A stretch of DNA of 64,000 nt from Elusimicrobiota bacterium (GCA_016722575.1 JADKIY010000001.1:704810-768809), one strand, 5' to 3'. Positions 963 to 64,000 are shown, counted from the first letter of the stretch. The notes: generated by a model from the sequence alone, not told the origin. Numbers and translations: made by a program.

Positions 963-982
963 TTTACACAAGATTTACAATT
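963..982 (+). promoter_or_regulatory. Tandem TTTACA direct repeat (TTTACAcaagaTTTACAA) upstream of giant gene 1, followed about 30 nt later by TATCAT-TAGG
   Basis: Near-identical arrangement upstream of giant gene 2: TTTACAaaacaTTTACAA at 60032-60050, then about 30 nt, then TATACT-AAGG. The repeat spacing (11 nt) is the same in both. Confidence 0.35.
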
Positions 983-26112: not shown

Positions 26113-26874
26113 GTGTTGCTCCTCGGTCACAGACGACCGGTATGCTCCCTCGTCGCGCCTTGCCCAGGGCCAAAATCCTCTCGGCAAAACGCTCAATTTA
26201 TTTTGACTCAAGCCCCAAACGAATCCCGCTCCCGTCGCGACCGGTTTTGGCCCTGGGTCGTCTCCTGGTTGGGGTGGCTGATTCTCCAATTCATTGGACG
26301 CACCTCCCGAATGGTGGTCCGTTGGTCCCCCGCCGCCCAATCGCTTCGAGAAAGTTCCCGCCCGATGATTTTTGCCTTCTGGCATCGTTACCAGTTGCTG
26401 ATGGCCTGGGAACACCGGGGCCGGGGCGTGACCGTGCTGGTCAGCCGCAGCCGGGACGGGGAATTCATCGCCGGGGTTCTGGAGCGCCTGGGATATCGGA
26501 CGGCGCGGGGGTCTTCCAGCCGGGGCGGGCCCGCGGCGTTTATGGAATTGCTGGACGTCGTGAACGCGGGCGGCCGGGTGGCCTTCACCCCCGACGGACC
26601 CCGGGGGCCCGCGCGGTCCATTCAGCCGGGCGTGTTGGCCCTGGCGGCCAAAACCGGGGTTCCCATCGTCCCCGTGGCCTGGGCCGGGACGCCGGTCAAA
26701 ACCCTTTCCAGCTGGGACCGATTCATGATCCCCCTGCCTTTCGGGCGGTTCCACGTGGTTTTCGGCGATCCCCTGATCGTGACGGCGGCCGATGGTGCGG
26801 CGGAGGAAAATTTGCGTCGGGCTCTAAATCAAGCCGAAGCCGACGCGGGTGAAGAACGGGAGACCGCGTGTTGA
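26113..26874 (+). CDS. DUF374-family protein (lysophospholipid-acyltransferase-like), of the kind often found next to Kdo transferase
   Basis: Conserved block FAFWHRYQLL...SRSRDGEF...GYRTARGSSSRGG...VAFTPDGPRGP typical of DUF374. Lies immediately upstream of and overlapping waaA. The start is uncertain and may be downstream of 26113. Confidence 0.65.
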   Translation: MLLLGHRRPVCSLVAPCPGPKSSRQNAQFILTQAPNESRSRRDRFWPWVVSWLGWLILQFIGRTSRMVVRWSPAAQSLRESSRPMIFAFWHRYQLLMAWEHRGRGVTVLVSRSRDGEFIAGVLERLGYRTARGSSSRGGPAAFMELLDVVNAGGRVAFTPDGPRGPARSIQPGVLALAAKTGVPIVPVAWAGTPVKTLSSWDRFMIPLPFGRFHVVFGDPLIVTAADGAAEENLRRALNQAEADAGEERETAC

Positions 26875-28166: not shown

Positions 28167-29185
28167 CCCGGTCCGCTCTCGTTGTCCGCTTGTCGTCCCT
28201 CGGGGACGTGCTTCTCACGATCCCGGTGTTTGAAAATCTTCGCCGGGCGTGGCCCGAGGCGCGGCTCACCCTCCTGGTTAAAAAAGCCTTCGCCCCCGCC
28301 CTGGCCGGCCATCCCGCCGTCGATGAATTGTTGATTTTTGAGGATTTGGGGTTTTGGGGCGTTCTCCGCGAAATCCGTCGCCGACGGTTCGATGCGCTGA
28401 TCGATTTGCACGACACGCCCCGCTCGAGGCTTTGGACCGCGCTGTCAAAGGCCGGTCGCGTGGTTCGTTATCGGAAACGCGCGTGGGCTCGGCGCCGTCT
28501 GGTTTGGTTCAAACGGCCGTCGGCGGAGTTGGCCGGGAAAACGGTCGACCGCTATTTGGAAACCCTGGCGGACCTCGGGGTCGAGGTGAGGGACCGGGTG
28601 CCTCGATTGCCCTCGCCCCCGGACGCGCTTCCGGCCCCCGCGACGACGGTCGCTCCGGGCCCCTGGATCGTCGTGGCGCCCGGCGCGTTGCACGCCACGA
28701 AACGTTGGCCCTCGGACCGCTTCGCCGCGGCCGCCGATCGCCTGGCGGAAGAGTTTCGCGCCGCGGGCGGGCCACCGCCCACGGTGGTCGTCGTCGGGTC
28801 CGCCTCGGACGGTCCGGCGGCCGAAGAGGTGTTGGAAACCCTTCAGGGACCGGCCCTTAATTTGACGGGCCGAACCTCGTTGAGGGAATTGATGGCCCTC
28901 CTTTCCCGCGCGGCGGTCCTTTTGTGCAACGATTCGGGCGCCATGCACCTGGGCGCGGCCCTGGGCGTTCCCACCGTGGCCGTGTTCGGGCCCACGGTCG
29001 AAGCCTTCGGCTTTTTTCCCTCCGGCGAAAAAACCGCCGTGGTTCAAAACGGGGGGTTGAATTGCCGACCCTGCGCCCTTCACGGCGGACGCCGATGTCC
29101 CCAAAAACATTTCCGGTGCATGACCGACGTGACGGTGGACCGCGTGGTGGGGGAAGCCCGACGGCTCCTCCGGGGGGCATCTTGA
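28160..29185 (+). CDS. LPS heptosyltransferase (GT9 family)
   Basis: N-terminus MLTRSALVVRLSSLGDVLL is the typical GT9 start. ATG overlaps the waaA stop. Confidence 0.85.
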   Translation: MLTRSALVVRLSSLGDVLLTIPVFENLRRAWPEARLTLLVKKAFAPALAGHPAVDELLIFEDLGFWGVLREIRRRRFDALIDLHDTPRSRLWTALSKAGRVVRYRKRAWARRRLVWFKRPSAELAGKTVDRYLETLADLGVEVRDRVPRLPSPPDALPAPATTVAPGPWIVVAPGALHATKRWPSDRFAAAADRLAEEFRAAGGPPPTVVVVGSASDGPAAEEVLETLQGPALNLTGRTSLRELMALLSRAAVLLCNDSGAMHLGAALGVPTVAVFGPTVEAFGFFPSGEKTAVVQNGGLNCRPCALHGGRRCPQKHFRCMTDVTVDRVVGEARRLLRGAS

Positions 29186-30231
29186 AGATCCTTCATGTTT
29201 TGGATGAGCGATGGGATTCGGGTTTGACCGCCTACGGCTTGGGCGCGGCCCGGGCCCTGCGGGACCGGGGCCACGCCCTGTGGATCGCCGCTTGTCCCGG
29301 GAGCCCGGCGGACCGGACCGCTCGGGCGGAGGGTTTTTCAACGGTGTCGCCGTCCCTCCTCGCCCTTCGGCGCTCCGTGGTCCAAAATCAAATCGACATC
29401 CTGAACGCCCACACCGGATCCGGGCACAGCCGGGGATTTCTGGCGACCCGTGGAACGCCGGCGGCCTTGGTCCGCACCCGGGCCGAGGCTCGGCGGTTGT
29501 CCCCGCGCCCCGGGCAGGGGTTTTTGTTCCGACGGACCGACGCGGTGGTGGCGGCTTCGCGCGCCTTGGGCGAGGCGTACGCGGCGGCGTACCCCTTTTT
29601 GAGGGAACGAACGCGGGTGATTTTTCCCGGCGTGCCTCTTTCCCCGGCGAGGCCGGAGCCTCCGGCGCCTTGGCGGGTGGCCTTGGTGGGCCGGCTGGAT
29701 CCGGTCAAGGGCCACGACTATTTTCTGGAAGCGGTGGAGCGTTTGCGGGACCATTTCTCTGCCGCGGAGTTTTGGATCGCCGGCGAGGACAAAAACCTGT
29801 CCCGGGCCGACTTGGAAAAGGACGCGGCGCGCCGGGGGGTCGCCGACCGGGTTCGGTTCGCGGGCCGGCTTCCGGACGCGGCGTCTTTTATGCGTTCCTG
29901 CCACCTGGGCGTCGTCTGTTCCGTGGGGAGCGAGGCGGTGTCCCGGGTGGCCCTCGAATGGTTGGCCCAGGGTCGGCCGGTCGTGGCCACGGCGGTCGGC
30001 GCCCTGCCGGAACTGGTGGAGGACGGACAGAACGGGCGCTTGGTCCCGCCCCGGGACGGGACCGCCCTGGCGGAGGCGATCGGAAGCCTGTTGAACGATC
30101 CCGAGGCCCGGCGCCGGATGGGCGCGGAAGCCCGGCGTCGCGCGGAGAATCAATTTTCTTTTTCCCGTTTGGGGGAAGAAACCGAGGAAGTTTACGGGCA
30201 GGCCCTGGGACGACGCCGGAGGTCCGCGTGA
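29181..30231 (+). CDS. Glycosyltransferase family 4 (GT4)
   Basis: Starts with the KILHVL motif and has a GT4 C-terminal region (EAVSRVALEWLAQGRPVVATAVGALPELV). TTG start at 29181 overlaps the upstream TGA (TTGA). The longer track ORF from 28924 would overlap the GT9 gene. Confidence 0.8.
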
Positions 30232-31328
30232 GTTTTCGAATCCTTCACGTGAACACGGAAAGGGGCTGGCGGGGGGGCGAGCGTCAAACCCTGTGGCTCG
30301 CCCGGGAGTTGGAACGGCGGGGGCATGGGAACGTGGTGGCGGCGCGGCCCAAAGGCCCGCTGGCGCGGGCCGCCGCGGAAGCGGGCCTCCGGGTCTTTCC
30401 CCTCGCTCCTTGGTCGGAATGGGATTTTCGGTCCGCCGGCCGCCTTCGGGCCTTTCTGCGCCAAGAAAACATTCAAGTGGTGCACGCCCACACGGGTCAC
30501 GCCGTCGGTTTCGGGGCTTTGGCGCGGCGGGGGACCACGGCCCGTCTGGTGGCGACCCGCCGGGTGGATTTCCCCTTAAAAAATAATTTTCTCAGCCGTT
30601 GGAAATACCGCTCCGTGGACGCCCTGGCGGCCATTTCCACCGCGGTGCGCCGCGTGGTGATCGAAGGCGGCGTGCCCGAATCGAAGATTTCGGTCATCCC
30701 CAGCGGCGTGGACCCCGCCGCCCATCCCTCCGTGGCCGACCGGAATCGGTTTCGCTCTGAGCGCGGGTTCACGCCCGCGGACCGCTTGGTCGTGCACGTG
30801 GGCGCCCTGGTGCCGCACAAGGACCAGGCGACCCTGCTCCGGGCTTTTGCCCTTCTCCGGGCCCGGGGAGCGGCCGATCGATTGCTGATCCTGGGCGACG
30901 GCCCCCGGCGGGAGGAACTGGAACGGTTGACCGCCGCTCTTCGATTGGAGGACGCCGTCTCTTTCCTCGGGCACCGCGGCGACGTGTTAGAATATACGGC
31001 CATGGCGGATCTTTTCGTTTTCCCATCGGTGGACGAAGGCCTGGGGACGGCCCTGTTGGACGCGCTCGTGTTGGGCGTGCCCACGGCCGCCACGGCCGCG
31101 GGCGGGATCCCGGACCTTTACGGCGGCCCCGGGGCCCCGGAACTGACGCCCCCGGGGGACGTCGAATCCCTGGCGCGCAACATGGCCGCCGTTTTGGAAA
31201 ACCCGGAGGAAGCCCGCCGCCGCGCGGAACGCGGGCGGGAGCGGGCCCGGGGTTTCTCGGTGTCCGCCATGACGGACCGTTACGAAGCGTTGTACCAAAA
31301 ACTGTTGGAGGCCCCGTGCCCCGCTTGA
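30228..31328 (+). CDS. Glycosyltransferase family 4 (GT4)
   Basis: RILHVNTERGWRGGE N-terminus and the EGLGTALLDALVLGVPTAATAAGGIPD GT4 motif. GTG start overlaps the previous stop (GTGA). Confidence 0.8.
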   Translation: MSFRILHVNTERGWRGGERQTLWLARELERRGHGNVVAARPKGPLARAAAEAGLRVFPLAPWSEWDFRSAGRLRAFLRQENIQVVHAHTGHAVGFGALARRGTTARLVATRRVDFPLKNNFLSRWKYRSVDALAAISTAVRRVVIEGGVPESKISVIPSGVDPAAHPSVADRNRFRSERGFTPADRLVVHVGALVPHKDQATLLRAFALLRARGAADRLLILGDGPRREELERLTAALRLEDAVSFLGHRGDVLEYTAMADLFVFPSVDEGLGTALLDALVLGVPTAATAAGGIPDLYGGPGAPELTPPGDVESLARNMAAVLENPEEARRRAERGRERARGFSVSAMTDRYEALYQKLLEAPCPA

Positions 31329-32065
31329 GCGCCATTTTGATCGCCCGCAACGAAGAGCGCGACCTTCCCGCCTGCCTGGAAAGCCTGCGGGGCGTGGCCG
31401 ACGAGATCGTTCTGGTCGACAGCCATTCCACCGACCGCACCCGGGACATCGCCCGCGAGCACGGCGCCCGGGTCATTGAGCGGGATTTCGCGGGGTTCGG
31501 CCCCCAAAAACAATACGCCCTGGAACAAGCCGCCGGGGACTGGGTGCTCAACATCGACGCCGATGAGCGATTGACGCCGGAGTTGGCCGACGACATTCGG
31601 CGGGCCCTGGCGTCTTCGCCCACGGTCAACGGATACGAATTGCCGTTTCAGGTTTACTTCCTGGGTCGGCGTCTGCGTTTCGGCGGCTGTTTCCGGGAGT
31701 TCCATCTTCGGCTTTTTCGCCGGGACAAAGCCCATTACGCCGGGGCCGAAATTCACGAGGGCATCTCGGTGCCGGGCCCCTGGGGGCGGCTGGCCCACCC
31801 CGTGCGCCACGAAAGTTACCGAAATTTTCAGGAATATCTGGAGAAATGCGCCCGGTACACGGGCTTGATCGCCCGCAAAAAATACGCCGAGGGCCGCCGG
31901 TTCGCTGTTTGGCAGCACCTTCGCCTGCCCTGGGAGTTCCTGGTCCGCTACGTTTTAAAGGGCGGGTTCCTGGACGGCAACGCCGGGCTGATATACGCCG
32001 TTCTCAGCTCCTATTACGCCTGGTTGAAGCACGTCCGACTTTTGGACGGGGGGGGGAAGGCGTGA
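31316..32065 (+). CDS. Glycosyltransferase family 2 (GT2)
   Basis: LSAILIARNEERDLPACLESL...VLVDSHSTDRT...NIDADE, with the typical GT2 DxD region. GTG start. Confidence 0.8.
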   Translation: MPRLSAILIARNEERDLPACLESLRGVADEIVLVDSHSTDRTRDIAREHGARVIERDFAGFGPQKQYALEQAAGDWVLNIDADERLTPELADDIRRALASSPTVNGYELPFQVYFLGRRLRFGGCFREFHLRLFRRDKAHYAGAEIHEGISVPGPWGRLAHPVRHESYRNFQEYLEKCARYTGLIARKKYAEGRRFAVWQHLRLPWEFLVRYVLKGGFLDGNAGLIYAVLSSYYAWLKHVRLLDGGGKA

Positions 32066-32865
32066 TCGGCGCGGCGTTGGCGGCGGGCGCCGTGGCCGCG
32101 GCGGGATTTTCCGCGCGTTGGAACTGGTGGCGCCCCCGGGCCCCGGGCCTTCCGGTGCTCATGTACCACAAAGTCGGGTTCCCGCCGCCGGGATCCAAAC
32201 TCAAAAAACTGTGGGTGTCCCCGGAGCAATTCCGGGCGCAGATGGCCTATTTGAAAAAACACGGGTACGCGCCCCGGACGCTGGCCGCGGTCGCCGCCGA
32301 CCTCGACGCCGGCTTGCCCCTGCCGGAAAAAAGCGTGGTCCTCACTTTTGACGACGGCTACCGGAACAATTTGGAAAACGCGCTCCCGATCCTGCGGGAA
32401 TTCGGGTTCCCGGCGGTGATCTACGTGGTGGTCAACGCCGTGGGCCGGGACAACTTCTGGCACGACCCGGCTTCCGAAACGCGGATTCCGATGCTCGACT
32501 GGGACGGCGTCCGGGCCCTTCAAAGCGCCGGTTGGGAAATCGGATCCCACACCCTGAACCACGCGCGCCTCTCCCGGCTGTCTCCCGACGCGGTCCGGAC
32601 GGAATTGACCCAGAGCCGGACGGTGTTGGCCGAAAAATTGGGGGTCGCGCCGGTTTCCTTCGCCAACCCCTACGGGGACGCCGCGGACGATCCCGCGGTC
32701 CAGGCGCTCATCCGCGAAGCCGGGTATCGCACCGCGGTGTCCGTCCATCAAGGAAAGGCGGACCTGTCCGGCAACCCCTATTGCCTCCGCCGTCTCTTCG
32801 TCCGCGGGGACGACACCGCCTGGGACTTTCATTTGAACATGACCCGCGGCCGCGCCCGCCTTTAA
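32062..32865 (+). CDS. Polysaccharide deacetylase (NodB-homology, CE4) family protein
   Basis: LTFDDGY...EIGSHTLNH motifs. GTG start overlaps the GT2 stop (GTGA). Confidence 0.8.
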   Translation: MIGAALAAGAVAAAGFSARWNWWRPRAPGLPVLMYHKVGFPPPGSKLKKLWVSPEQFRAQMAYLKKHGYAPRTLAAVAADLDAGLPLPEKSVVLTFDDGYRNNLENALPILREFGFPAVIYVVVNAVGRDNFWHDPASETRIPMLDWDGVRALQSAGWEIGSHTLNHARLSRLSPDAVRTELTQSRTVLAEKLGVAPVSFANPYGDAADDPAVQALIREAGYRTAVSVHQGKADLSGNPYCLRRLFVRGDDTAWDFHLNMTRGRARL

Positions 32866-32870
32866 TCCCC

Positions 32871-33878
32871 GTGAAGATCCTCATCGTCCAGCCCCGCCGG
32901 ATCGGCGACGTTATCGTCACCACCCCCGTCATCGACGCCCTGCGGACGCGGTTTCCCGACGCGCGCATCGAATTCCTGGTGGAAAAAGGCATGGCGCCGG
33001 TGCTCGAAGGCTACCCGGGATTGGACGAGGCGTTGGTTTTCGAAAAGTCCCGGTTTTGGTTTTGGCTTCGGGAAATCCATCGGCGTCGCTACGACTGGGT
33101 GTTGGATTTCATGAACAACCCCCGAACCGCCCAGTTGACCTGGGCCAGCCGGGCGCCCGTGCGGGCCGGTTTTGAAACCCCCTTCTGGGGAATGGTGTAC
33201 ACCCACCGGGTGGAACGCCCCCCGCGCCCGCTCTACGCCGTTCAAATCAAATTCAATTTGCTTCGTCGGCTGGGCCTGACCCCGGCGGACCCAGTCCTCC
33301 CTCGGATCCCTTTGCGCCCGGCGGATTTTCAGCCCGCGGCGGGGTGGTGGGCCGAAAAAGGCTTGGACGCCTTTCGGGAACGGGTCGCGGTCCTTCCCAT
33401 GCATCGGCGCCCCATCCGCCAGTGGCCCGTGGCGCGTTTTTCGGAAACGATCCGACGTCTCTTGGCGGTTCCGGACCGGGCGATCCTCCTGTTCGGCGGG
33501 CCGGAGGAGCGGGGGGAACTTGAAAAAATGGCCGCGGCTTTTCCGGGGCGGGTGTTCGTGATTCCCCCCGGTGGATTGCGTCAGGCGGCGGCCCTCCTGT
33601 CGCGGTGCCACGCGGCGGTCACCAACGATTCGGGGTTGATGCATTTGTCGGTGGCGGTGGGGATTCCGACGGTGACCGTTTACGGCCCCACCTGGCCCGA
33701 GTCCTGGAACCCGCGCGCCGCCCCCCACCGATACCTTCAAGCCCGGGGGCTCTCTTGCCTGGGGTGCAACCGCGATCAATGCCCCTTCGGCCACGAGTGC
33801 ATGGACTGGGTGTCGGTGGATCGGGTGGTCGCCGAGGTCGAAGGCGCCCTCGCCGCGCGGCCCGCCGGGACGCCGTGA
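32871..33878 (+). CDS. LPS heptosyltransferase (GT9 family), second copy
   Basis: VKILIVQPRRIGDVIVTTP start and a GT9 C-terminal region (VTNDSGLMHLSVAVGIPTVTVYGPT). GTG start 5 nt after the upstream stop. Confidence 0.82.
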   Translation: MKILIVQPRRIGDVIVTTPVIDALRTRFPDARIEFLVEKGMAPVLEGYPGLDEALVFEKSRFWFWLREIHRRRYDWVLDFMNNPRTAQLTWASRAPVRAGFETPFWGMVYTHRVERPPRPLYAVQIKFNLLRRLGLTPADPVLPRIPLRPADFQPAAGWWAEKGLDAFRERVAVLPMHRRPIRQWPVARFSETIRRLLAVPDRAILLFGGPEERGELEKMAAAFPGRVFVIPPGGLRQAAALLSRCHAAVTNDSGLMHLSVAVGIPTVTVYGPTWPESWNPRAAPHRYLQARGLSCLGCNRDQCPFGHECMDWVSVDRVVAEVEGALAARPAGTP

Positions 33879-34948
33879 ATTTGCCGTCGATGGATTCGCC
33901 CGGGGGCGTGTGGTGGCGAGCGGTTCTTTGGGGTCCCGCCCGGCTGTTCGGGGTCGCGACCGCGGCCCGGGCCCGGGCCTATCAACGTGGATTTTTCGAG
34001 ACCGTCCGGATTCCCGTTCCCGTGGTGTGCGTGGGGAATCTGACGGTGGGCGGTTCGGGAAAGACCCCGGTGGTCGAGTGGTTGGCGGAACGTTGGATCG
34101 CCGCCGGGCGTCGCCCCGCGATTCTCTCCCGGGGTTTCGGGCGTTCCGCCCGCGCCCCGGCGTTGGTGCCCAATCGTCCGGGGGACGCTCCGCCTTCCGT
34201 CGAGTCGGTGGGGGACGAGCCGCGCTGGCTGGCCGGGCGTTTGCCCGGGGTTCCCCTGGGGATCGGCGCCGACCGGGCCCGGTCCGCGGAGCGGGTGTGG
34301 GAGGAATTTCGCCCCGAGGTCCTGATTCTGGACGACGGTTTGCAGCATCACCGGCTCCATCGCGACCGCAATTTGATTTGCTTGGACGCCCGTCTCGCCC
34401 ACGGGGTGTGGGGGGAAGGGCGGTCGGCGCCGCTTCTTCCGGCCGGTCCCTGGCGGGAGCCCCCCTCCGCGTTGGTCCGGGGGGACGCGCTCCTTCTCAC
34501 CCGCGCCGAACGCCTGGACCCGTCCCAACGGGAGAATCTCCGTCAACGCTTATCGTTTTTTTCCGGGCCGATCGGGGTGGCCCATTACCGGCTCCGTCTT
34601 CGGGACGGCGAGCGGGCCGTTCCCGCCTCCGAAATGACGGGGCGGCCGGTGTTGGCCCTCTCCGGCTTGGCGGATCCGGCGTCTTTCGAGGAAGGCCTCG
34701 CCCGGCTGGGAGGCCAGGTCGTCGGGGAGCGTTTCGGGGATCATCACGCGTTTTCGGCGTCGGAAGCGGCCCGGGCGGTGGAGCGGGCCCGACGGGAGGG
34801 CCGCCTTCTGATCACCACCGAAAAGGACGCCCAGCGACTGCCCCCCGGGTTTCCGGCCTGGGTGGCGCGCCTGGATTTGGAATGGGAGGACACGGCGTGG
34901 ACGACGGTCGTCGATTCCGCTATCGGCTCGAATCCCTCGGCGTCTTAG
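33875..34948 (+). CDS. lpxK: Tetraacyldisaccharide 4'-kinase
   Basis: P-loop VVCVGNLTVGGSGKTP, characteristic of LpxK. Start is either GTG 33875 (overlapping the upstream stop) or ATG 33890. Confidence 0.85.
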   Translation: MNLPSMDSPGGVWWRAVLWGPARLFGVATAARARAYQRGFFETVRIPVPVVCVGNLTVGGSGKTPVVEWLAERWIAAGRRPAILSRGFGRSARAPALVPNRPGDAPPSVESVGDEPRWLAGRLPGVPLGIGADRARSAERVWEEFRPEVLILDDGLQHHRLHRDRNLICLDARLAHGVWGEGRSAPLLPAGPWREPPSALVRGDALLLTRAERLDPSQRENLRQRLSFFSGPIGVAHYRLRLRDGERAVPASEMTGRPVLALSGLADPASFEEGLARLGGQVVGERFGDHHAFSASEAARAVERARREGRLLITTEKDAQRLPPGFPAWVARLDLEWEDTAWTTVVDSAIGSNPSAS

Positions 34949-35778
34949 GCCTCGTCCGGGCCCTGGGCGTTCTGCCGCCGGCCATGGGCCGCCGGATCGG
35001 CGCCGCCTTGGGAACGGCGTTGGGCGCCGTCGCGGGGAAACGCCGCCGACGGGCCGAGGAAAATATGCGCCTGGCCTTTCCCGAGGTCGGCGATTCCCAG
35101 CGGGCGGCTTGGGCCCGGGACCTCTGGCCCCAGCTCGGACGCGCCGCCTGGGAATTCGCGCGTTTGGCCCGCCTCTCTCCCGACGAATATCTCGCCGCCG
35201 TCGAGGTGCGCGGGCTGGACCGGGTCGTGGCGTCGGCGGCCGCGGGAAAGGGCGTGCTGCTCTTCACCGCCCACATCGGCAACTGGGAATACGCCACCCC
35301 CTTTCTGTCCTTGGCCGGCCTTCGCCTGGCCGCGATCGCGCGGCGCATCAAGAACCCTTTCGTGGACGCTCTGGTGACCCGGGTCCGGGCGCGCTTCAAC
35401 ACCCGGGTGATCCTTCACCGGGAAGCGGTCCGGGAATCCCTCCGGTGGTTGCGCTCCGGGGGCGTGCTGGGTCTCCTCTTCGACCAGCGCATCACCGAGG
35501 GGGGATTGTCGGTCCCGTTTTTTGGACGCCCGGCCCGCACGACGGGTCTTCCGGCGCTTCTGGCTCTTCGAGTCGGATGCCCGGTGCACCCCATCCATTC
35601 TTACCGGGAAAACGGCCGGTTGATCATCGAATGCGACCCGGCCTTGGACATCTCGACGGGTCCGCCGACCGAAGACAATCTCCGGGCGCTCATGGAGCAA
35701 ATGACGAAGGTGGTCGAAGGGTGGATCCGTCGTCATCCGTCCCAGTGGCTCTGGATTCACGACCGGTGGAAACCCTGA
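34882..35778 (+). CDS. Lipid A biosynthesis acyltransferase (LpxL/HtrB family)
   Basis: LFTAHIGNWE...GLLFDQR motif of lysophospholipid/lipid-A acyltransferases. Start is ambiguous (ATG 34882 or GTG 34897) and overlaps the lpxK 3' end. Confidence 0.78.
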   Translation: MGGHGVDDGRRFRYRLESLGVLGLVRALGVLPPAMGRRIGAALGTALGAVAGKRRRRAEENMRLAFPEVGDSQRAAWARDLWPQLGRAAWEFARLARLSPDEYLAAVEVRGLDRVVASAAAGKGVLLFTAHIGNWEYATPFLSLAGLRLAAIARRIKNPFVDALVTRVRARFNTRVILHREAVRESLRWLRSGGVLGLLFDQRITEGGLSVPFFGRPARTTGLPALLALRVGCPVHPIHSYRENGRLIIECDPALDISTGPPTEDNLRALMEQMTKVVEGWIRRHPSQWLWIHDRWKP

Positions 35779-35819
35779 GACGGCGCCAATGAACCCGTCG
35801 GCCCCGAATGATATGATCC

Positions 35820-36971
35820 ATGGTTGAACGGCGTTTAAAAATCGCCGTCGCCGCCCGCAACGCCGCCGGGTTGTCGGGGGCCTCGACCCTCCTGTGGGAG
35901 GAAACCCGCCGCCTGGCCGCCCTCGGGCACGACGTTCACGTTTTCGCCGAGCGGGTGGACGACGCCCGTTTCGTCGGCGGCGGGGTCCGCGCGGTTCGCG
36001 TGGCCCGGTGGCCCTGGGGGAGCCGCCTTAAGCGGCGGTGGTTCGCCGGCCGGGTGGGGCGCGCCGTCCGCCGGGGCGGATTTGACCTGGTTCACGGCCA
36101 CGGGGACCTTCTGAATCAGGACGTGCTCAGCCTTCACAACTGCGTCCACACGGCGCACGAACGGGTGTACGGGGCTCCCCTCCCGTCGGGGTCCGGCGTC
36201 GGGTGGATGCACGAACGTCAACTGCGCGGGCGGCGGTTTCGCCTTTTGATCGCCAACTCCCGCCTCATGAAAAACGACGTGGAAAAGCGGTTCGGCGTTC
36301 CGCCGGGGCGGATCCGGGTGGTTTACCCCGGGGTCGACCCCGCCCGTTTTCGCCCCGAGGACCGGGGGGTTTGGCGGGAGGCTCAGCGGCGCCGATGGGC
36401 GGTGGGCGAAGGGGACGTGGTCGTGGGCCTCGTCACCTCCGGGGATTTCGAGAAGAGGGGGCTGCCCATTTTCCTGCGCGCGTTGGCCCAATTGCCGACG
36501 GAGGTCCAAGGTCGTGTGCGGGCGGTGGTGGTGGGGAAAGAAACCCGTCCCGGTCCTTATTTGGATTTGGTTCGGTCCCTCGGCTTGGGCGACCGGGTGC
36601 AATTTGAATCGCCCCAGGTTCACGTCGAAGCCCTCTACCACGCGCTCGACGTCTACGTCCACCCGGCGCCCTTCGAGGAATTCGGCATGAGCGTTCAAGA
36701 GGCCATGGCCTGCGGCGTCCCGGTGCTGACGAGCCGCCGGGTGGGGGCGGCGGAACTCTGGCCGGCCGCGTGGGACGACTGGTTGGCCGACGAGCCGGAC
36801 GCCCCGGGGCTTTCCGCCCGTTTGGCCGCCTTGGCGAAGGACGCCTCCCTCCGCCGGTCCCTGGGCGCCGCCCTGCCGTCCGCGGTTCGCGGCAACGATT
36901 GGGACGCGCATTTTCTGAAATTGCGGGCGTGTTACGACGAGACCTTGGACCTCGTCGGTCGCCCCGAATGA
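35820..36971 (+). CDS. Glycosyltransferase family 4 (GT4)
   Basis: EEFGMSVQEAMACGVPVLTSRRVGAAE GT4 signature. ATG start. Confidence 0.8.
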   Translation: MVERRLKIAVAARNAAGLSGASTLLWEETRRLAALGHDVHVFAERVDDARFVGGGVRAVRVARWPWGSRLKRRWFAGRVGRAVRRGGFDLVHGHGDLLNQDVLSLHNCVHTAHERVYGAPLPSGSGVGWMHERQLRGRRFRLLIANSRLMKNDVEKRFGVPPGRIRVVYPGVDPARFRPEDRGVWREAQRRRWAVGEGDVVVGLVTSGDFEKRGLPIFLRALAQLPTEVQGRVRAVVVGKETRPGPYLDLVRSLGLGDRVQFESPQVHVEALYHALDVYVHPAPFEEFGMSVQEAMACGVPVLTSRRVGAAELWPAAWDDWLADEPDAPGLSARLAALAKDASLRRSLGAALPSAVRGNDWDAHFLKLRACYDETLDLVGRPE

Positions 36972-36987
36972 ACAACGGAGTACGCCC

Positions 36988-38085
36988 ATGATCGGTTCCC
37001 CCATCGGGATCGCGGTTCGCGATTTGGCCTCCAGCGGCGGGCGCGCCGCCCTGGAATTGGCCCGCCGGCTCTCGCCCAACGGGTACGAGCCGCGCCTCGC
37101 CGTCCACCGGCTCGGGAACGAACCGACCGAGGCGTCGGACGGACGATCGGTCGAGGTGTCGACCGTCGCGGAATGGCCCCTTTCGTCGTGGTTGGCGGCG
37201 TACAGTTTTGATCGGAGCGCCCGGGCGCGCCTCCGCCGGTGCGACGCCCAATTGATCCACGGGTACGGGGGTTTGGTCGTTCAGGATCTGTTGACCCTTC
37301 CCACGCTGGAGCGGCTCCGCCAGCGCCACGTGCCGGGGGCGCCGCCGCCGTCGTCGGGGATCGGTTACCTTCGGCGGTTGCAGTTGGGCCCCGGGGGCGC
37401 CCGGGCCGTGACGGTGTTTTCCGAAATGGCCCGCCGCGATTTGGCGGAGGTCTACGAGGTGCCGTTGACGTCCGTTCGCGCGATTGCGCCCGGCGTGGAT
37501 TCGAGGCGTTTTCGGCCCGACGACCGGGGGCCCAGCCGGTTTACCCTGTTTCGGGTCTCGGGGTGGACGGACCACTACAAGATCGTTTTGGCCGTCGTGA
37601 CGGACGACCCCGCCACCCAGGATTTCTCGCTCCTGGCCCGGGCCGTGGACTTGTTGGCGGACCGTGTGCCGTCGGCTCTTTGCGTCCTGGGGCGGGTCGA
37701 TTTGTCGAAAAATCCGGCGGTTCAGCATCTCGCCCGGCGCGGGCGGTTTTTCCAGGTGCCGGCCACCCAGCACGTTGAAAAATATTTTGTCGCCGCCGAC
37801 GTCTACGCCCTCCCGGCCCATTACGAGGAATTCGGATTGCCGGTCCTGGAGTCCCTGTCGTCCGGGACCCCCGTGGTCGTGAGCGGAAGGACCGGCGCCA
37901 AAGAAGTGGTGTCGAACGGGACCGACGGCATCGTCGTCGACGATATGCAGGACCCGAACGTCTGGGCCATGGCGTTGGAGCGCGCCTGGTCCCTGGACCG
38001 GACGGTGTGCCGCCGTTCCGCCGAAACCCGCCCCTGGGACGCCCACGTGGCCGCGATCGTTCAGCTTTACCGAGGGCTGATGTGA
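36988..38085 (+). CDS. Glycosyltransferase family 4 (GT4)
   Basis: YEEFGLPVLESLSSGTPVVVSGRTGAKEVV GT4 signature. GGAG ribosome-binding site 8 nt upstream of the ATG. Confidence 0.8.
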   Translation: MIGSPIGIAVRDLASSGGRAALELARRLSPNGYEPRLAVHRLGNEPTEASDGRSVEVSTVAEWPLSSWLAAYSFDRSARARLRRCDAQLIHGYGGLVVQDLLTLPTLERLRQRHVPGAPPPSSGIGYLRRLQLGPGGARAVTVFSEMARRDLAEVYEVPLTSVRAIAPGVDSRRFRPDDRGPSRFTLFRVSGWTDHYKIVLAVVTDDPATQDFSLLARAVDLLADRVPSALCVLGRVDLSKNPAVQHLARRGRFFQVPATQHVEKYFVAADVYALPAHYEEFGLPVLESLSSGTPVVVSGRTGAKEVVSNGTDGIVVDDMQDPNVWAMALERAWSLDRTVCRRSAETRPWDAHVAAIVQLYRGLM

Positions 38086-60031: not shown

Positions 60032-60050
60032 TTTACAAAACATTTACAAA
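60032..60050 (+). promoter_or_regulatory. Tandem TTTACA direct repeat (TTTACAaaacaTTTACAA) upstream of giant gene 2, then TATACT-AAGG 9 nt before the ATG
   Basis: Same motif, repeat spacing and downstream TATnnT-[T/A]AGG box as upstream of giant gene 1. Confidence 0.35.
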
Positions 60051-60094
60051 CCCTTCCCCGGTTCTTTCCCCCGGACCTTCTATACTAAGGCTCT

Positions 60095-63000
60095 ATGAAC
60101 CGCCGTCGAGTCCGCCCCCCCCATCGATCGTTCTCGAACCCCGTTCGGCCCGTCTGGCGTCTGGGGATGGCGGCCTCCGTCTTTTTGACTTCCATCGGGC
60201 CCCTCGCCGCGGACGATTTGTGGTCCGATCGCCGCCGCGCCGCCCGTTCCCGGTTCGCCGACGAGATCGCCCCCGCGGCCGATTCCCTGAAGGCCGTTCT
60301 CCCGTCGGCCGAGGAGGCCTGGAGCGGCCGGATTTTCGGCCCCACCGAGGCCGCGGCCGGTGCGTCGATCCCGGGTCCCGGCCTGTTGCCGGCCTGGGTC
60401 CGCTCCACGGTCGGAATGGACGGCGACGTGCGGGACGTTCGTTTTCCGAATTCAGCGCCCCGGCGGGTCGTCATCCACATTCAGGATTTGCACGACGTGG
60501 AGGAAGCCCAGCGTCGGGTGGCGGGCCTCCTGGAGCAGCTGGCGGCTTCCCGGCCGGGGCCCCTGCCGGTGGTCCTGGAGGGCGCCGCGGGCGCTTTTGA
60601 GCTCCCCGCCTTCCGGGCTTTCGCCGACGATCGGGCCCGGGCCCGCGCGGCGGACCTGTTGCTCCGCCACAACGTGTTGTCCGGCCCCGAGGCCTTCGGC
60701 CTAACCACGGCCCGGGACGCGCGTCTGCGCGGGGCGGAAGATCCGGATTTGTACCGGGAAAACGTCGCCGTCCTGCGGGACGCTTTGCCGCGCCGCGAGG
60801 CCGATGCCGCCCGTTTGGCCGCCGTCGTCCGAGTTTTCGAGGGTCTTCGGGAAAAAAAGCTGCCCCCGGCCCTCCTCGCCCTGGAACGGAATTCCGACGC
60901 CTACGAAGCCGGGGCCCTGCCCCTGGCGGCCTACGTGAGCGCCCTCTCGTCGCCCGAATCGGCGGGGGGGGAAGGCCCGACGGTTCGCCGCCTGCGGCGC
61001 GTGTTGGACATCGAGCGCCGGGTTCGTCCCGAGCGCGTGGCCGAAGAGCGCGTGCGCCTCGTGGAGCGGTTGGCGCCCCTTTTGTCCCCGTCGGAAACCC
61101 GGGATTTGATGCGCGCCGGGTTGGACCACCGCCTCGGACGCGGCGCCCCCGATTTATTTCACGCCGCGTTGACCGCGTTGGCCGCCTCGCACGGCGTTTC
61201 CTGGTCGGAATTCCCCGCCTACGCCGCCTACGAAACCTCCCGAGCCGAGGCGGAAAAAATCGATCCCGCGCGCCTTCACGAAGAACTGGCCGCCCTCGCG
61301 GCCGCGCGGCGGGCCGCCCTCGCGACGGACGACGGGGCGCGTCAGCTCCTGGCGGCCGGGGAGGACCTTCGCTTGATCCGCCGCTTGACGGCGTTCGGCC
61401 TTTTGCCGGGGGATCTGCCGCGTCTGCAAGAACGGCAAAAAGAGTTGGAGCAATGGGCCGAGCGCGTGGCCGACTGGTCGCGGACGGACGTTCCCTCCGT
61501 CGCGGAAAGCGTTCGGCGGAGCGCGTTGTTTTATTCCTTGGCCGAACGCCGGAACGGGGCCTTGGCCGACCGGTTGATCGAAACCTTTGAGGACGCCGCG
61601 CCCGCGGGCGCCCCGTCCGTCGTCGTGCTGGTGGCCGGCGGTTTCCACGGCCCCGGCGTTCGGGACGCCCTTTTGGGTCGCGGGGTGGGTTACATCGGGC
61701 TCGTGCCCCGCGCCTTGGGATCGTCGGCGGCTTCGTTGGACGATTTTCGCCCCGGGTCTTCCCCCGTCGATCGAATGTGGTCCGGCGCCCGTCGGGCCCT
61801 CCACCGCCCGCTCGTTTTGGCGGCCGACCCGCTGGACGACGCGCCCGGCGCCTCGGAGCGGGCCCGCGGACTCTTGGCGGGCGCCCTGGCCGCGGTGTCC
61901 CTCGCGGGGGCGGCCGTGGACGCCCAGGCCGGTCCTCTTGCCCCGGGCCAACGCGTGTCCTTGGCCCGGTTCTCCCCGGAAGGGCGCGATCGATTGAACG
62001 CCCTGGCGCAAACCGCCCAGGAACGGGCCGCCGATCTGACGCCGCCCCTGGATTTGACGGTGGGCGTCGGGGGGCTGACCCTCGTTCGCGCGCCGGAAGG
62101 GGGACCGCAACTTCGGCTGCCCCTGGCGTTGGCCGGGCCCGCGGGCCCGGACCGACGGACGGCGGTGGTGACCTTTTCGCCGGACGGTTCGACGGTGGTC
62201 GATTTGGTTTTCGAGCGGGCCGCCGCCGAATGGCGCGCGTGGGCGAAGGACGAATGGCGGAAATTGATCGGTATTCCGGTTCGCCAAGGGTTGGCGGTTT
62301 TTCGAAGTTCCCTGGTGTCCCCCTGGAGCCCCGGGTTGGACGAATGGATGGGCCGCCGGTTGGCGGCGCTCGGCACCCGGAGCCTCTGGTCCGTCGGACA
62401 AGCCACGGGCGGCGTGGCTTCTTTCGGGTTGCTGGAAATAAACCGCGCCGCCCGTTGGACCGGTTGGAGCGGCCTGGCCCGGTGGACCGAGAATTTGCGC
62501 GAACGCCTTCTTTTGGACGAGGAGCGCCGGTGGGTCGGCCTCCTCCTTCGAAACGCTCCGTTGGGCGTCCGGTCCGCCCTCTTCCACCGCCTGGCCCTCG
62601 CCCACGGAATGCCCTGGGACCGGGCTTGGACCGAAGCCCTGCGGGAGTCGTTGCCGCGCCTGGGCCCCGGCGTGCCGCCGTTGTCCGTCGTCGGCGTGGA
62701 CCTCCGCCCGGCGTTGCCGGGGGACCCCGGCGGGGCCACCGTCCATGTTCTTTTGAACGGGCAACCCCGAACCCTTCAGTTTTCGGCTTCGCGTTCGGCG
62801 GCTCTGGCCGATCGCGCGATGGACCACGCGTTGGTTCAAGTGTCGTGGGGTCGGAACGCGGCCGCTCCCTGGGTGACGCTTCAGGCGGCCGCCTTGGCCG
62901 ACACCACGGTCATGGCCTCGGTGTTGCGCCACACGGTGCGGGAGTGGGACGCGCTCTTGACCGACCCGGACCTTTCCTTCAGCGAAGCCCACGCGTTGGT

Positions 63001-64000
63001 TCGCGAGGAGGGCGAGGATTTGCGCCTGGATTTGGTCCTTGAGCGCCGACGGTGGATCGACCCCGTGCAGACCTTCGAAAACGGTTTGTTGAACGGAAAC
63101 TTGGTGGACGTGGAAATCGATCGGAGCCGCCTCCGGGGCCCCGCGTGGACGCCGGCCGACGCGGCCGCCGCCGTGCGCGTGCGTCCGTTGTCGACCAATC
63201 GGACCATCGAGCAGGGACGCCAGGGATTCTTTTCCGATTTCGGCCTCTCGCCGTATTTGTTGGGAACCACCGGCCCCTCGGCCTCGGAGATTTTGGAGGA
63301 CGTGAATCGTTTGACCGCGCGGCTTCGTTCCCTGGACGTGCCCGAGCCCCGGGCCTGGGCGGAGCGGCTCGCGGAAGTTTCCTTGAAGGAAAAAATCGAC
63401 GCCCTGCGCCTGTTGGCCCGTTATTTCCGGGCCCGGGACCGCCAAGGGGAGTTCTTCCCGTTGGGAAGCAAACGCGCTCCCCGGGTGCGGGCGTTGTCGG
63501 ATTTTGTGTTGGGGCTCGCGCGTTCCGTGGGCCGGGAAGCCGGTCAGCTGGCCGCCCTTCGCGGGGGGGCCGTGCGACCGGCCGCGCCGGACGCGCTCCT
63601 CCGCGCCCGGGCGCAAAGCGCCGTGGAGCGTTTTCCGTCTCTGGCGCGCACCTTGTTCGCTCTGTTGGAAGAAGCCGGCGTGACGCCCGTTCCCGGAAAA
63701 GAAGCGGAGCGGACCGCCTTTGCCGCCGATTTGTTGATGGTCTACGCCCACGCCTTTGACGAGGGCTACGGCCGTCTCGCCGTTTTGACCACGGCGTTCG
63801 CCGCCCGGGAAGCCCCGGACGCCAAGGGCCTGGTCGTGGGGGTTTTCCATGTGCGCGACTCCCTGCGCGATTCCCTGGCCGCCGGCGAACTGGTCCGCTC
63901 CCTGCTCGAGCGTGGGCGTCAAGGGACGTCGGCCGGATTCGCCCCCGTCGTTCTCCTGGACGGGGCGGGTTTCGAGAACGCCACCGCCCGCCAACTGTCG
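60095..64000 (+). CDS. Second giant secreted/membrane protein, paralog of the 1216-21474 gene. 3'-partial: it continues beyond the window end
   Basis: My manual translation from ATG 60095 in frame 2 runs open to nt 64000 (about 1,300 codons) with high GC3. It is not in the supplied ORF track, apparently because it has no in-window stop. Signal-like N-terminus MNRRRVRPPHRSFS...GMAASVFLTSIGPLAA. Conserved blocks shared with gene 1 include VIHIQDLHDVEEAQR vs IIHLQDAHEIAEAQR and VVLVAGGFHGPG vs VLVAGGFHTAG. Confidence 0.75.
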   Translation, partial: MNRRRVRPPHRSFSNPVRPVWRLGMAASVFLTSIGPLAADDLWSDRRRAARSRFADEIAPAADSLKAVLPSAEEAWSGRIFGPTEAAAGASIPGPGLLPAWVRSTVGMDGDVRDVRFPNSAPRRVVIHIQDLHDVEEAQRRVAGLLEQLAASRPGPLPVVLEGAAGAFELPAFRAFADDRARARAADLLLRHNVLSGPEAFGLTTARDARLRGAEDPDLYRENVAVLRDALPRREADAARLAAVVRVFEGLREKKLPPALLALERNSDAYEAGALPLAAYVSALSSPESAGGEGPTVRRLRRVLDIERRVRPERVAEERVRLVERLAPLLSPSETRDLMRAGLDHRLGRGAPDLFHAALTALAASHGVSWSEFPAYAAYETSRAEAEKIDPARLHEELAALAAARRAALATDDGARQLLAAGEDLRLIRRLTAFGLLPGDLPRLQERQKELEQWAERVADWSRTDVPSVAESVRRSALFYSLAERRNGALADRLIETFEDAAPAGAPSVVVLVAGGFHGPGVRDALLGRGVGYIGLVPRALGSSAASLDDFRPGSSPVDRMWSGARRALHRPLVLAADPLDDAPGASERARGLLAGALAAVSLAGAAVDAQAGPLAPGQRVSLARFSPEGRDRLNALAQTAQERAADLTPPLDLTVGVGGLTLVRAPEGGPQLRLPLALAGPAGPDRRTAVVTFSPDGSTVVDLVFERAAAEWRAWAKDEWRKLIGIPVRQGLAVFRSSLVSPWSPGLDEWMGRRLAALGTRSLWSVGQATGGVASFGLLEINRAARWTGWSGLARWTENLRERLLLDEERRWVGLLLRNAPLGVRSALFHRLALAHGMPWDRAWTEALRESLPRLGPGVPPLSVVGVDLRPALPGDPGGATVHVLLNGQPRTLQFSASRSAALADRAMDHALVQVSWGRNAAAPWVTLQAAALADTTVMASVLRHTVREWDALLTDPDLSFSEAHALVREEGEDLRLDLVLERRRWIDPVQTFENGLLNGNLVDVEIDRSRLRGPAWTPADAAAAVRVRPLSTNRTIEQGRQGFFSDFGLSPYLLGTTGPSASEILEDVNRLTARLRSLDVPEPRAWAERLAEVSLKEKIDALRLLARYFRARDRQGEFFPLGSKRAPRVRALSDFVLGLARSVGREAGQLAALRGGAVRPAAPDALLRARAQSAVERFPSLARTLFALLEEAGVTPVPGKEAERTAFAADLLMVYAHAFDEGYGRLAVLTTAFAAREAPDAKGLVVGVFHVRDSLRDSLAAGELVRSLLERGRQGTSAGFAPVVLLDGAGFENATARQLS

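Follow-up and report, generated by a model that had tools for sequence, protein, structure and literature searches.

Gene B, which begins at position 60095 of the 64,000-nt stretch of Elusimicrobiota DNA analyzed here (the window) and runs off its end, belongs with the giant gene A of the same window to one very large, mainly Elusimicrobiota protein family. Homology and domain layout give this family a fixed "bookend" plan of head, cargo and tail, and the family is uncurated. Taken as a whole, it is probable that gene B is a real paralogue of A in this family, whose proteins are exported and have a hydrolase head, a dedicated tail and a promoter that co-regulates the genes.

Gene B occupies 60095–64000 on the plus strand. 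Frame 2 from ATG 60095 is uninterrupted to base 64000 in translation (1,302 codons), and GC content at the three codon positions is 0.74/0.55/0.81, with the coding pattern present in each 600-nt block; the preliminary description of this DNA was right on both the open frame and the high-GC3 bias. Since the only in-frame stop upstream is at 60086–60088, 60095 is the earliest possible start. The window part is 100% identical over its full length to the 1,422-aa protein MBL0349413.1 (P0001, IPP68_03420) of an Elusimicrobia MAG, so gene B ends about 120 codons beyond the window. For the downstream extension that had been proposed, this identical protein serves as a stand-in and places the expected stop codon about 363 nt past the window end. 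Orthologues are conserved at 1,311–1,430 aa. By frame, composition and conservation, gene B is thus an intact, real gene with a predicted 1,422-aa product, large rather than the "second giant" first described.

Long spurious ORFs arise in high-GC genomes, and many overlapping ORFs lie on both strands of the window. Nevertheless, the chance that gene B is such an ORF, or that the antisense 946-aa ORF (61154–63994, minus strand) is the true gene, is vanishingly small. The plus frame has coding GC3. In the antisense ORF GC1 exceeds GC3 (0.81 against 0.73), the pattern of a shadow, and Pfam yields no match for it. Homologues of the gene B protein keep the invariant motifs across identities of 86% to about 30%. 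For practical purposes the chance-ORF explanation is already refuted. We reject the antisense ORF as a gene, with a conserved protein on the opposite strand, and regard it as a shadow of high-GC coding DNA. It appears in the ORF track in place of gene B, as had been noticed, because the track omits ORFs running off the window.

Giant gene A (1237–21474, plus strand; GC3 0.80) encodes 6,745 aa from ATG 1237, a start picked by alignment to family N-termini; the mechanical ORF (1021–21474) begins at TTG 1021 and has about 6,800 residues. In the pairwise comparison that had been suggested, BLASTP aligns residues 11–564 of B with 78–650 of A at 32% identity over 585 columns (E=5e-48), and BLAST detects no similarity past B residue 564. 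The family profile matches the A head (1237–2949) with 742 bits and the B head (60095–61771, aa 1–559) with 646 bits over profile positions 2–555. The N-terminal homology first described is therefore real, but it spans about 555–560 aa and not about 800. All four motif pairs proposed as common to A and B are present in both translations; the A head has IIHLQDAH, LEGA, DRN and VAGGFH, and its catalytic motifs are the same as in B. The alignment identifies A and B as anciently diverged paralogues. Both window genes are situated among housekeeping genes.

A profile search with the head (N-module) finds 9,718 representatives at E≤1e-3 and 6,582 at E≤1e-30. The module lies at about residues 2–600 in proteins of up to 7,623 aa, and family members measure between about 1.2 and 7.6 kaa. 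Of 78 loci, about 73 belong to Elusimicrobia/ota MAGs, and at least one Omnitrophota MAG (L068) has a head homologue. The proposed search for further copies gives at least 5–12 per Elusimicrobiota MAG, with the genes scattered, and the suspected family with a common N-terminal module has thousands of members. Between head and tail, the cargo is variable and cassette-like, as judged from domain scans. In A it extends from 3625 to 20277 (Pfam, NCBIfam and a crude hydropathy scan) and includes HD (3625–4002), GlgA-like GT5/GT1 (6634–8241), GlnD-type nucleotidyltransferase-like (18493–19398) and GlnD C-terminal/ACT-like (19648–20277) domains, an alpha/beta-hydrolase-like segment under the Pfam cut-off (13207–13491), long unassigned stretches and about seven hydrophobic helices. 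In 20 relatives the same scans recognize ABC1 and Ser/Thr kinases, LMW-PTP, FHA, phosphatases, PPDK and peptidases. In the cargo of gene B (61772–64000, aa 560–1302 in the window, continuing to 1422), Pfam and NCBIfam scans recognize nothing, and it gives no functional clue.

The A tail (20563–21471, the last ~300 aa) is common to P0037, P0118, P0060, P0082, P0073 and others. Its C-terminal cap (21244–21471, the last 76 aa) ends in VVSTNA-COOH. A C-cap HMM gives 31.2 bits right at the C-terminal end of A, against at most 8.5 bits in 400 shuffles; its scores of 31 and 20 bits both stand above this shuffle maximum. All eight positives of this HMM in ~1 M aa are at C-termini of family genes. HHalign comparison of tails gives P=1e-5, in register (control P=0.86), and Ala is the last residue in 114 of 134 long family members versus 11% background. 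The family tail is, by these profile comparisons, a conserved C-terminal domain, with an invariant Ala closing its predicted last helix. In gene B the conserved tail is located beyond the window.

The head continues for ~520 aa past the signal-like N-terminus. Its AlphaFold model (B head, pLDDT 74.8) shows a parallel alpha/beta core that resembles solved TIKI-superfamily members, with ChaN as the best structural match. The core is formed by two halves, 60404–60760 (aa 104–222) and 61514–61729 (aa 474–545), separated by a helical insertion or "lid" of ~250 aa (60761–61513, aa 223–473). Helices occupy 217–501 in the model, and R346, G348, E307 and other lid residues are invariant in alignment A1. 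The first half contributes D131-x-H133 (60485–60493), Q139, E162 (60578–60580), E199 and E215; the second contributes R486-N487 (61550–61555) and G515-G-F-H518 (61637–61648), invariant in 153/153 aligned representatives. D131, H133, E162 and H518 are invariant in 153–156 of 156 head representatives with pairwise identity of at most 50%, and Q139 and R486 are invariant too. In the model, D131, H133, E162 and H518 follow core strands, at the strand C-terminal ends. The TIKI catalytic set is 2His/2Glu plus Arg, represented in RRSP by E3900-x-H3902, E3930, H4030 and R4001 (PMC6254334). The head matches this set in order, with Asp (D131) replacing the first Glu; the H-to-E spacing is 29 in the head and 28 in RRSP, and the R-to-H spacing is 32 and 29 (PMC6254334). 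The invariant R486, 32 residues ahead of H518, is the counterpart of R4001, with residues mapped via motif order, spacing and secondary structure rather than 3D superposition.

Sequence scores for this core stay under curated thresholds. PF04187 (ChaN) is the only recurrent Pfam match, in 9 of 23 core sequences and 2 of 13 full modules, all sub-threshold; the matches are confined to profile positions 161–204 of 213, always the R-N...GGFH segment, with a best score of 17.5 bits (E=0.0042) under the 27.7-bit gathering threshold, and gene B itself has none. PF05139 (erythromycin esterase) and PF01963 (TraB) are absent from head matches even at E≤1–10, profile searches of PDB sequences give no match, and Foldseek returns nothing significant (EreC is top-ranked). 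We assign the core, at fold level and from the model, to the TIKI/TraB/ChaN/erythromycin-esterase type with its full catalytic constellation. The view that the N-module is of unknown function is therefore not entirely right, as the fold and constellation of its core can be named.

The closest known proteins are those of the TIKI/TraB-PrgY/ChaN/erythromycin-esterase superfamily (ChaN 2G5G, EreC 6XCQ, Bcr135/136, HopBA1 5T09, RRSP 5W6L). The head core shares with them the alpha/beta architecture with a parallel sheet, the acid-x-His after a strand, the Glu after the next and the Arg followed by G-x-x-His ~30 residues on; Ere enzymes also have a helical insertion between core halves, fusion to other domains is frequent in the superfamily, and the superfamily also occurs in large toxins. 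Unlike these proteins, the head is under threshold for every curated model, has Asp as its first acid, additional invariant Q139, E199, E215 and N487 and a far larger lid. It invariably occupies the N-terminal region, preceded by a conserved signal-like peptide and FW-x-E-R-R, and in every case comes with its own particular tail at the C-terminus. Because ChaN, a haem-binding lipoprotein, heads the structural matches and alone recurs among the Pfam signals, the head could be a non-catalytic binding module, e.g. for ChaN-like haem/ligand binding or PrgY-like peptide sequestration, and the TIKI fold includes inactive proteins, PMT C1/C2 among them (PMC6254334). We consider this improbable. Inactive TIKI members typically lose the 2His/2Glu set (PMC6254334), whereas all catalytic-type residues are invariant across the 156 head representatives, which favors chemistry over mere binding. 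The head would then be an active peptidase or esterase with one job in all members whatever the cargo. The likeliest such job is to process or mature either the exported multi-domain protein itself or an envelope substrate common to all.

Upstream of gene B, 47 nt ahead of its ATG, is a direct repeat TTTACA-N5-TTTACA (60032–60048, plus strand). A -10-like hexamer TATACT (60081–60086) follows 32 nt past the second repeat and 8 nt before the ATG, suggesting a leaderless or near-leaderless B mRNA. Gene A has the same repeat at 963–979 (plus strand), 12 nt past the queA stop, and the hexamer TATCAT at 1011–1016, 31 nt past the repeat; the resulting ~215-nt leader to ATG 1237 matches no Rfam family, and its fold is unremarkable. 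These are the only two matches in the window (0.01 expected). In other genomes the repeat precedes a further 40 N-module genes (none on the opposite strand), and a TAnnnT hexamer lies 31–32 nt past repeat 2 in 42/49 sites. Repeat and hexamer are established as an element, in all likelihood the promoter common to family genes. OmpR/PhoB-type boxes, e.g. the PhoP box (T/G)GTTTA-N5-(T/G)GTTTA, are similar. Like them, the family element is a hexamer direct repeat with an 11-bp period, upstream of a -10 without a good -35. Unlike them, it has an additional conserved TTCTTAAG, and its repeats end ~32 nt ahead of the -10-like hexamer, more upstream than in the classic pho box. A factor binding these 11-bp-spaced repeats may co-regulate the family, and the element points to a regulon and a regulator to be sought in Elusimicrobiota genomes.

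The N-terminus of B (60095–60214, aa 1–40) is signal-peptide-like, with an Arg-rich n-region, a short hydrophobic stretch and a small-x-small site PLAA/DD, and LWSDRRR (60218–60238) follows right after. By heuristic statistics on 117 family N-termini, the n-region has a median of 3 K/R, the h-region a median of 13 aa, and a small-x-small site is present in 96; these values fit Sec/SPase I criteria (positive n-region, 7–15-residue h-region, small-x-small), while the post-site Arg cluster is atypical. In the motif [FL]-W-x-[ED]-R-R, W is present in 115/117 and [ED] and R in 117/117 motif-bearing N-termini. The hydrophobic/cleavage region also shows sequence conservation (..TNV..[HY]A[AS]E, then F-W-x-E-R-R); such conservation is atypical of plain Sec signals. 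We infer that the family proteins are exported, by a Sec-type signal.

Export sits badly with some of the cargo, as kinases, GlnD-like nucleotidyltransferase, ADP-glucose-type glycosyltransferase and PPDK need cytoplasmic nucleotides. The proteins might instead stay inside, with the hydrophobic segment buried or serving as a cytoplasmic-face inner-membrane tether, and act as membrane-associated multi-enzyme or signaling scaffolds with head and tail for assembly. The HD, GlgA-like GT5 and GlnD NTase/ACT domains of A, typically cytoplasmic and nucleotide-dependent, favor this, as do the ABC1, Ser/Thr kinase, LMW-PTP, FHA and PPDK domains of relatives, the sequence conservation of the stretch and the W-x-E-R-R-R cluster directly after it. 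Arg clusters just after a hydrophobic stretch normally disfavor Sec translocation. We nevertheless find a cytoplasmic location unlikely. A median of 13 residues is too short to span a membrane, and small-x-small sites are frequent. The same promoter element also precedes genes of clearly secreted proteins, namely small ones with signal peptides and an S8-Ig-FN3 protease. ChaN and PrgY have extracytoplasmic roles. More generally, bacterial TIKI-superfamily domains of known role are extracytoplasmic or toxin-borne (PMC6254334), and comparable Omnitrophota multi-enzyme giants are likewise predicted to have signal peptides and TM helices.

For proteins exported in this way, the tail may be a common docking or recognition element. 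MARTX toxins offer a parallel: conserved regions at either end flank central enzyme domains that can be exchanged, the protein has a processing hydrolase of its own (putative for the family head), and one effector, RRSP, has a TIKI fold. The family could accordingly be a multi-effector delivery platform like MARTX or polymorphic toxins, with the central enzymes as effectors into prey, host or competitors and with head and tail for secretion, translocation or autoprocessing. Conserved ends around variable cassettes, the many paralogues per genome, a cargo repertoire that seems to resemble effector arsenals, and published interpretations of giant proteins in related phyla as weapons for predation or at the cell surface all agree with delivery, but we judge it quite unlikely. 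Scanned against Pfam and NCBIfam, A, B and 20 relatives show no RTX-type glycine-rich repeats, cysteine protease domain (CPD), Rhs/PT-domains or known toxin domains. The predicted N-terminal signal peptide differs from the T1SS-only export of MARTX, no secretion genes are adjacent, and MARTX lacks the many paralogues per genome. In contrast to polymorphic toxins, the C-terminus is the conserved part, and no immunity, transporter or partner gene recurs alongside (at most 5/78 N-module loci have a neighbor in common); A and B lie among housekeeping genes.

A broader form of the exported, bookended reading is tentative, and we would not expect it to hold in full: head, tail and promoter may constitute a system, so far undescribed, that spans the phylum. 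Each cell would have at least 5–12 co-regulated, exported bookended proteins, in which a TIKI-like hydrolase head and an Ala-terminated tail jointly put exchangeable enzyme cassettes to work beyond the cytoplasm, e.g. via head–tail docking, autoprocessing/cargo release or envelope anchoring. If true, it would be a new general way of handling very large secreted multi-enzyme proteins, and may underlie giant proteins of Omnitrophota and Planctomycetota relatives.

Giant or very large genes are common in Elusimicrobia and Omnitrophota, and their organization and function are essentially obscure. One large class gains a concrete anatomy: an enzymatic-type head with named residues, a diagnostic tail, cassette cargo and a common promoter. 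About 10,000 "hypothetical protein" clusters become a definable family, for which alignment A1 suits a Pfam- or NCBIfam-type model, and H133, E162, R486, H518 and the terminal Ala are targets for mutagenesis. The portions available to us of two accounts of giants from Omnitrophota, a neighboring phylum ("Archaeovorins" and related; West-Roberts et al. 2023, 10.1101/2023.11.21.568195; 2026 preprint, 10.64898/2026.06.07.730766), report very long ORFs with signal peptides, TM helices, mixed enzyme domains (including GT5 glycogen-synthase-like, GT1, PPDK and GGDEF) and N-terminal regions without identifiable domains. Classes are set there by cargo (HEAT, dockerin, C39/S8 peptidases) and size (>10–100 kaa), and those portions describe no TIKI-like head, Ala-ending tail or common promoter. 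The "Archaeovorin"-like class has no formal definition, and A is compared by domain content: at 6.7 kaa, it has GT5/GT1, HD, hydrolase and GlnD-like domains and hydrophobic helices, but no HEAT or dockerin; B has no recognizable cargo, and most members of the bookended family are 1.2–7.6 kaa.

The open frame that begins at ATG 60095 on the + strand (gene B) is a real gene for a 1,422-aa protein and an ancient paralogue of the giant gene A (1237–21474 on the same strand, mechanical ORF 1021–21474). Both belong to a very large uncurated family with a fixed N-terminal module (the head), a fixed C-terminal region (the tail), a fixed promoter and exchangeable cargo between head and tail. Read from ATG 60095, the frame stays free of stops for 1,302 codons, to base 64000. 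The nearest in-frame stop on the 5' side is at 60086–60088, so this ATG is the earliest start available to B. The coding bias is as described before, with a GC content of 0.74, 0.55 and 0.81 at codon positions 1, 2 and 3 and a GC3 of 0.79–0.84 in each 600-nt block. The antisense ORF at 61154–63994 shows the mirror-image shadow pattern (GC1 of 0.81, higher than GC3 of 0.73) and has no Pfam match. B is indeed absent from the ORF track, solely because the tool leaves out ORFs running off the window. The window contains 83 ORFs of at least 250 aa with much overlap on both strands, as is usual for DNA of 66% GC; the genes identified as real lie essentially all on the + strand.

All four motif pairs quoted for A and B are found in both translations, and formal alignment agrees with paralogy: BLASTP gives a single HSP of B 11–564 with A 78–650 at 32% identity (E=5e-48). 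The homologous stretch covers about 555 aa and not the proposed 800 aa. B was also taken for a second giant; its entire length in the window is 100% identical to MBL0349413.1 ('hypothetical protein IPP68_03420', 1,422 aa), from an 851-kb contig of an Elusimicrobia MAG, and by this match the stop codon of B would lie about 363 nt past the window end. The observation in the preliminary description is therefore partly confirmed and its interpretation partly supported: the gene, the paralogy and the family stand, the span and the giant size do not. A truncated or decayed giant is ruled out as well, since the orthologues of B (1,311–1,430 aa) retain its whole architecture, making B a stable mid-sized member.

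The head is not recognized by Pfam or NCBIfam. A 13-sequence alignment of it (A1) shows invariant polar residues, and the A1 profile finds 9,718 proteins at E≤1e-3 among 1.84 billion cluster representatives, 6,582 of them at E≤1e-30. In the best 150 of the 9,718, the head is almost always at residues ~2–600, in proteins of up to 7,623 aa. The AlphaFold model of B 1–559 (pLDDT 74.8) has an alpha/beta core of six strands, split by an all-helical insertion from ~217 to ~501. Foldseek with this model found nothing significant in the PDB; EreC again ranked first, and PMT and RRSP appear lower down among the ranked matches of the model. All three are members of the TIKI/TraB/ChaN/erythromycin-esterase (TIKI/ChaN/Ere) hydrolase superfamily. 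Neither the full module nor its core alone, used as a profile against PDB sequences, had a significant match. The sole recurrent family match is PF04187 (ChaN, 'Tiki superfamily'), to which 9 of 23 core-only sequences and 2 of 13 full modules align. Every such match stays below the cut-off of 27.7 bits (17.5 bits at best) and is confined to the R-N...V-A-G-G-F-H segment, which corresponds to ChaN profile positions 161–204 of 213.

According to the RRSP structure paper (PMC6254334), active TIKI enzymes use two His and two Glu (E3900-x-H3902, E3930 and H4030) together with the basic R4001. The counterparts in the head are D131-x-H133, E162, R486 and H518 (B numbering). The spacings are near-identical in the head and RRSP (29 versus 28 and 32 versus 29), and in the model each residue comes immediately behind a core strand or within the helix that leads to the last motif. 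These five residues are invariant in 153–156 of 156 representatives that share no more than 50% identity with one another. On this evidence we assign the head to the TIKI/ChaN/Ere hydrolase fold at the superfamily level, in no curated family. The head combines this fold with an intact catalytic constellation, and is predicted, with fair probability, to be catalytically active. After the last core strand an extended linker is conserved (B 61700–61790, residues ~536–565; A 2880–2990) with the pattern L-D-x-F-x-x-x-P-x-P-[LV]-[ED]-[KR]-[LIM]-[FW]-[AS]-G, which reads LDVFARSPLPLEKILAG in A and LDDFRPGSSPVDRMWSG in B. The linker has low pLDDT and could be a pseudo-substrate or processing site.

Among 117 family N-termini, the initial Met leads into a segment rich in K/R (median 3 K/R) and then a short one without charges, with a median length of 13 residues. 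Next comes, in 96 of the 117, a small-x-small site embedded in the conserved string ..T-N-V-x-x-[AV]-[HY]-A-[AS]-E-x-N-F-W-x-[ED]-R-R-x-A. This arrangement resembles a Sec/SPase I signal peptide with two oddities, its conserved sequence and the Arg cluster after it. We consider it fairly likely that the family proteins are exported via Sec.

The tail defines the other end of the family. Among head-bearing proteins with 1,200 aa or more, 114 of 134 have Ala as their last residue (background Ala 10.8%); in the genome loci this holds for 22 of the 28 complete ORFs of the family that reach 1,400 aa. The consensus is ...[LI]-[RKE]-x-[LI]-x-[FLY]-[ILV]-x-[IT]-[QSN]-A-COOH; among shorter sequences, mostly fragments, 1 of 23 has such an end. 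An HMM built on the C-terminal 70 residues, with A, B and close B orthologues left out of the training, scores 31.2 bits at the extreme C-terminus of A (tail at 20563–21471) and 20.4 bits at the tail of B, which lies beyond the window. The best score in 400 composition-matched shuffles was 8.5 bits, and elsewhere along the 6,800 residues of A no score exceeds zero. In the six-frame translation of 78 Elusimicrobiota loci (~1 million residues) there are eight positive matches, each of which coincides exactly with an ORF end. In seven cases the ORF bears a head; the eighth match, in an ORF directly 3' of a head-bearing ORF, looks like part of that same gene, split by a frameshift. HHalign aligns B-type and A-type tails in register with the C-terminus at 65–82% probability (P=1e-5 to 6e-5), and for an internal control region P is 0.86. 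Jackhmmer, started from the final 260 aa of either protein, failed to unite the two tail types; the homology came from the 70-aa family-wide HMM and HHalign. In the modelled B cargo the terminal helix completes a Rossmann-like alpha/beta domain.

In MAGs derived from long reads, many head-bearing ORFs below 1,300 aa lack the Ala tail at their end (loci L017, L020, L024, L063, L010, L042 and others). Some are followed by a tail-carrying ORF, as in L011 (9968–17437, then 17413–19353), which points to frameshifts in the assemblies or to decay of some family genes into pseudogenes.

Between head and tail, A carries HD, GlgA-like GT5/GT1, an alpha/beta-hydrolase-like stretch and GlnD-type NTase/ACT-like regions (Pfam, NCBIfam). 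The cargo of 20 relatives includes ABC1 and Ser/Thr kinases, LMW-PTP, FHA, PPDK/PEP-utilizer, LCM methyltransferase, M48 peptidase and DUF294/GlnD NTases, and in some nothing recognizable. When A is compared with representatives by BLAST, proteins with its head and its last ~300 aa have differing subsets of its internal blocks, with the order kept; the 1,766-aa representative P0082 is essentially head plus tail. Family cargo is cassette-like and exchangeable between fixed ends. The cargo of B is conserved in its own subfamily only; Pfam, NCBIfam, a structure model and PADLOC gave no functional clue to it, PADLOC having zero defence-system matches.

Much of the cargo is of a cytoplasmic, nucleotide-dependent type, and this is the main tension with the export suggested by the N-termini. 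It leaves room for the proteins being cytoplasmic scaffolds, or effectors that are delivered. For Omnitrophota giants the literature notes this puzzle too. For the head, we put forward only tentatively a role independent of cargo, either in processing/maturation or acting on an envelope substrate common to the family. Published work describes giant genes as common in Elusimicrobia and Omnitrophota, and West-Roberts et al. describe the N-terminal regions of their giants as generally without identifiable domains. In the library searched we found no paper tying Elusimicrobia or Omnitrophota to TIKI/TraB/ChaN domains or describing the head/tail/promoter architecture. Taken together, these proteins form a new family-level variant inside a known hydrolase superfamily, within a newly described architecture of which the common C-terminal tail and the common promoter element are new here.

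A sigma-70 consensus scan 5' of A and B found no promoter. The direct repeat TTTACA-N5-TTTACA, spotted by eye and tested afterwards, occurs exactly twice in the 64-kb window (up to one mismatch, both strands) against 0.01 expected, at 963–979 (+) 5' of A and at 60032–60048 (+) 5' of B. Across 1.14 Mb of related loci and the window, 49 sites occur (up to one mismatch), every one on the strand of the family gene and 0 on the opposite strand; 40 of the 47 sites in the loci (L002–L075) stand upstream of a head-bearing gene. The consensus is aaaa-TTTACA-aaaaa-TTTACAA-n-TtcTTAAGg, with the extended form TTTACA-N5-TTTACA(A-n-TTCTTAAG), and a TAnnnT hexamer follows 31–32 nt past the second repeat at 42 of 49 sites. 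In B and many relatives the ATG is 6–9 nt after this hexamer, suggesting leaderless mRNAs. A differs from B and most relatives in its ~215-nt leader (1022–1236) from the -10-like hexamer to ATG 1237. This leader holds an out-of-frame ATG ORF of 13 codons (1032–1073), has zero Rfam matches and is of ordinary fold stability (z=-0.07). Hexamer direct repeats that recur every 11 bp are characteristic of OmpR/PhoB-type response-regulator boxes, and we see about an even chance that a direct-repeat-binding activator co-regulates the family. Outside the family the element precedes only a few genes, and these are for secreted proteins (L055:2364–3002, L055:3109–3756, L050:2336–2974 and 3187–3762, L062:531–1085, L061:16063–20628). 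The products are tandem small beta-rich proteins (~175 aa mature) with classic signal peptides ending in ...IVAGL, and a 1,522-aa S8 subtilase with Ig/FN3 domains. They may form one regulon with the family genes.

Scanning one genome per GTDB species gave at least 78 loci, about 73 of them from Elusimicrobia or Elusimicrobiota MAGs; others are from Planctomycetia (two), Omnitrophota (one) and an unclassified genome (one). In these latter loci (L064, L068, L076 and L077) the head is N-terminal in large proteins and keeps all catalytic motifs (HIQDAHCNFEAQ, EGA, RD and GGFH) and lacks FW-x-E-R-R, so the family reaches past Elusimicrobiota in variant form. Copy number, estimated from other MAGs, is at least 5–12 per individual MAG, at times with two or three copies inside 20 kb; the 64-kb window has two heads only. 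No recurrent neighbour or partner gene was found among the 78 loci. A is lodged between queA (7–951) and tgt (~21555–22679), within the widely conserved queA-tgt-yajC-secD-secF cluster (yajC 22676–23065, secD-secF 23058–25450), and polA-fpg-coaE precede B. An LPS-type gene run at 26868–38085 (Kdo transferase, GT9 heptosyltransferase, lipid A acyltransferase, polysaccharide deacetylase and several GT4) indicates a diderm, LPS-bearing envelope.
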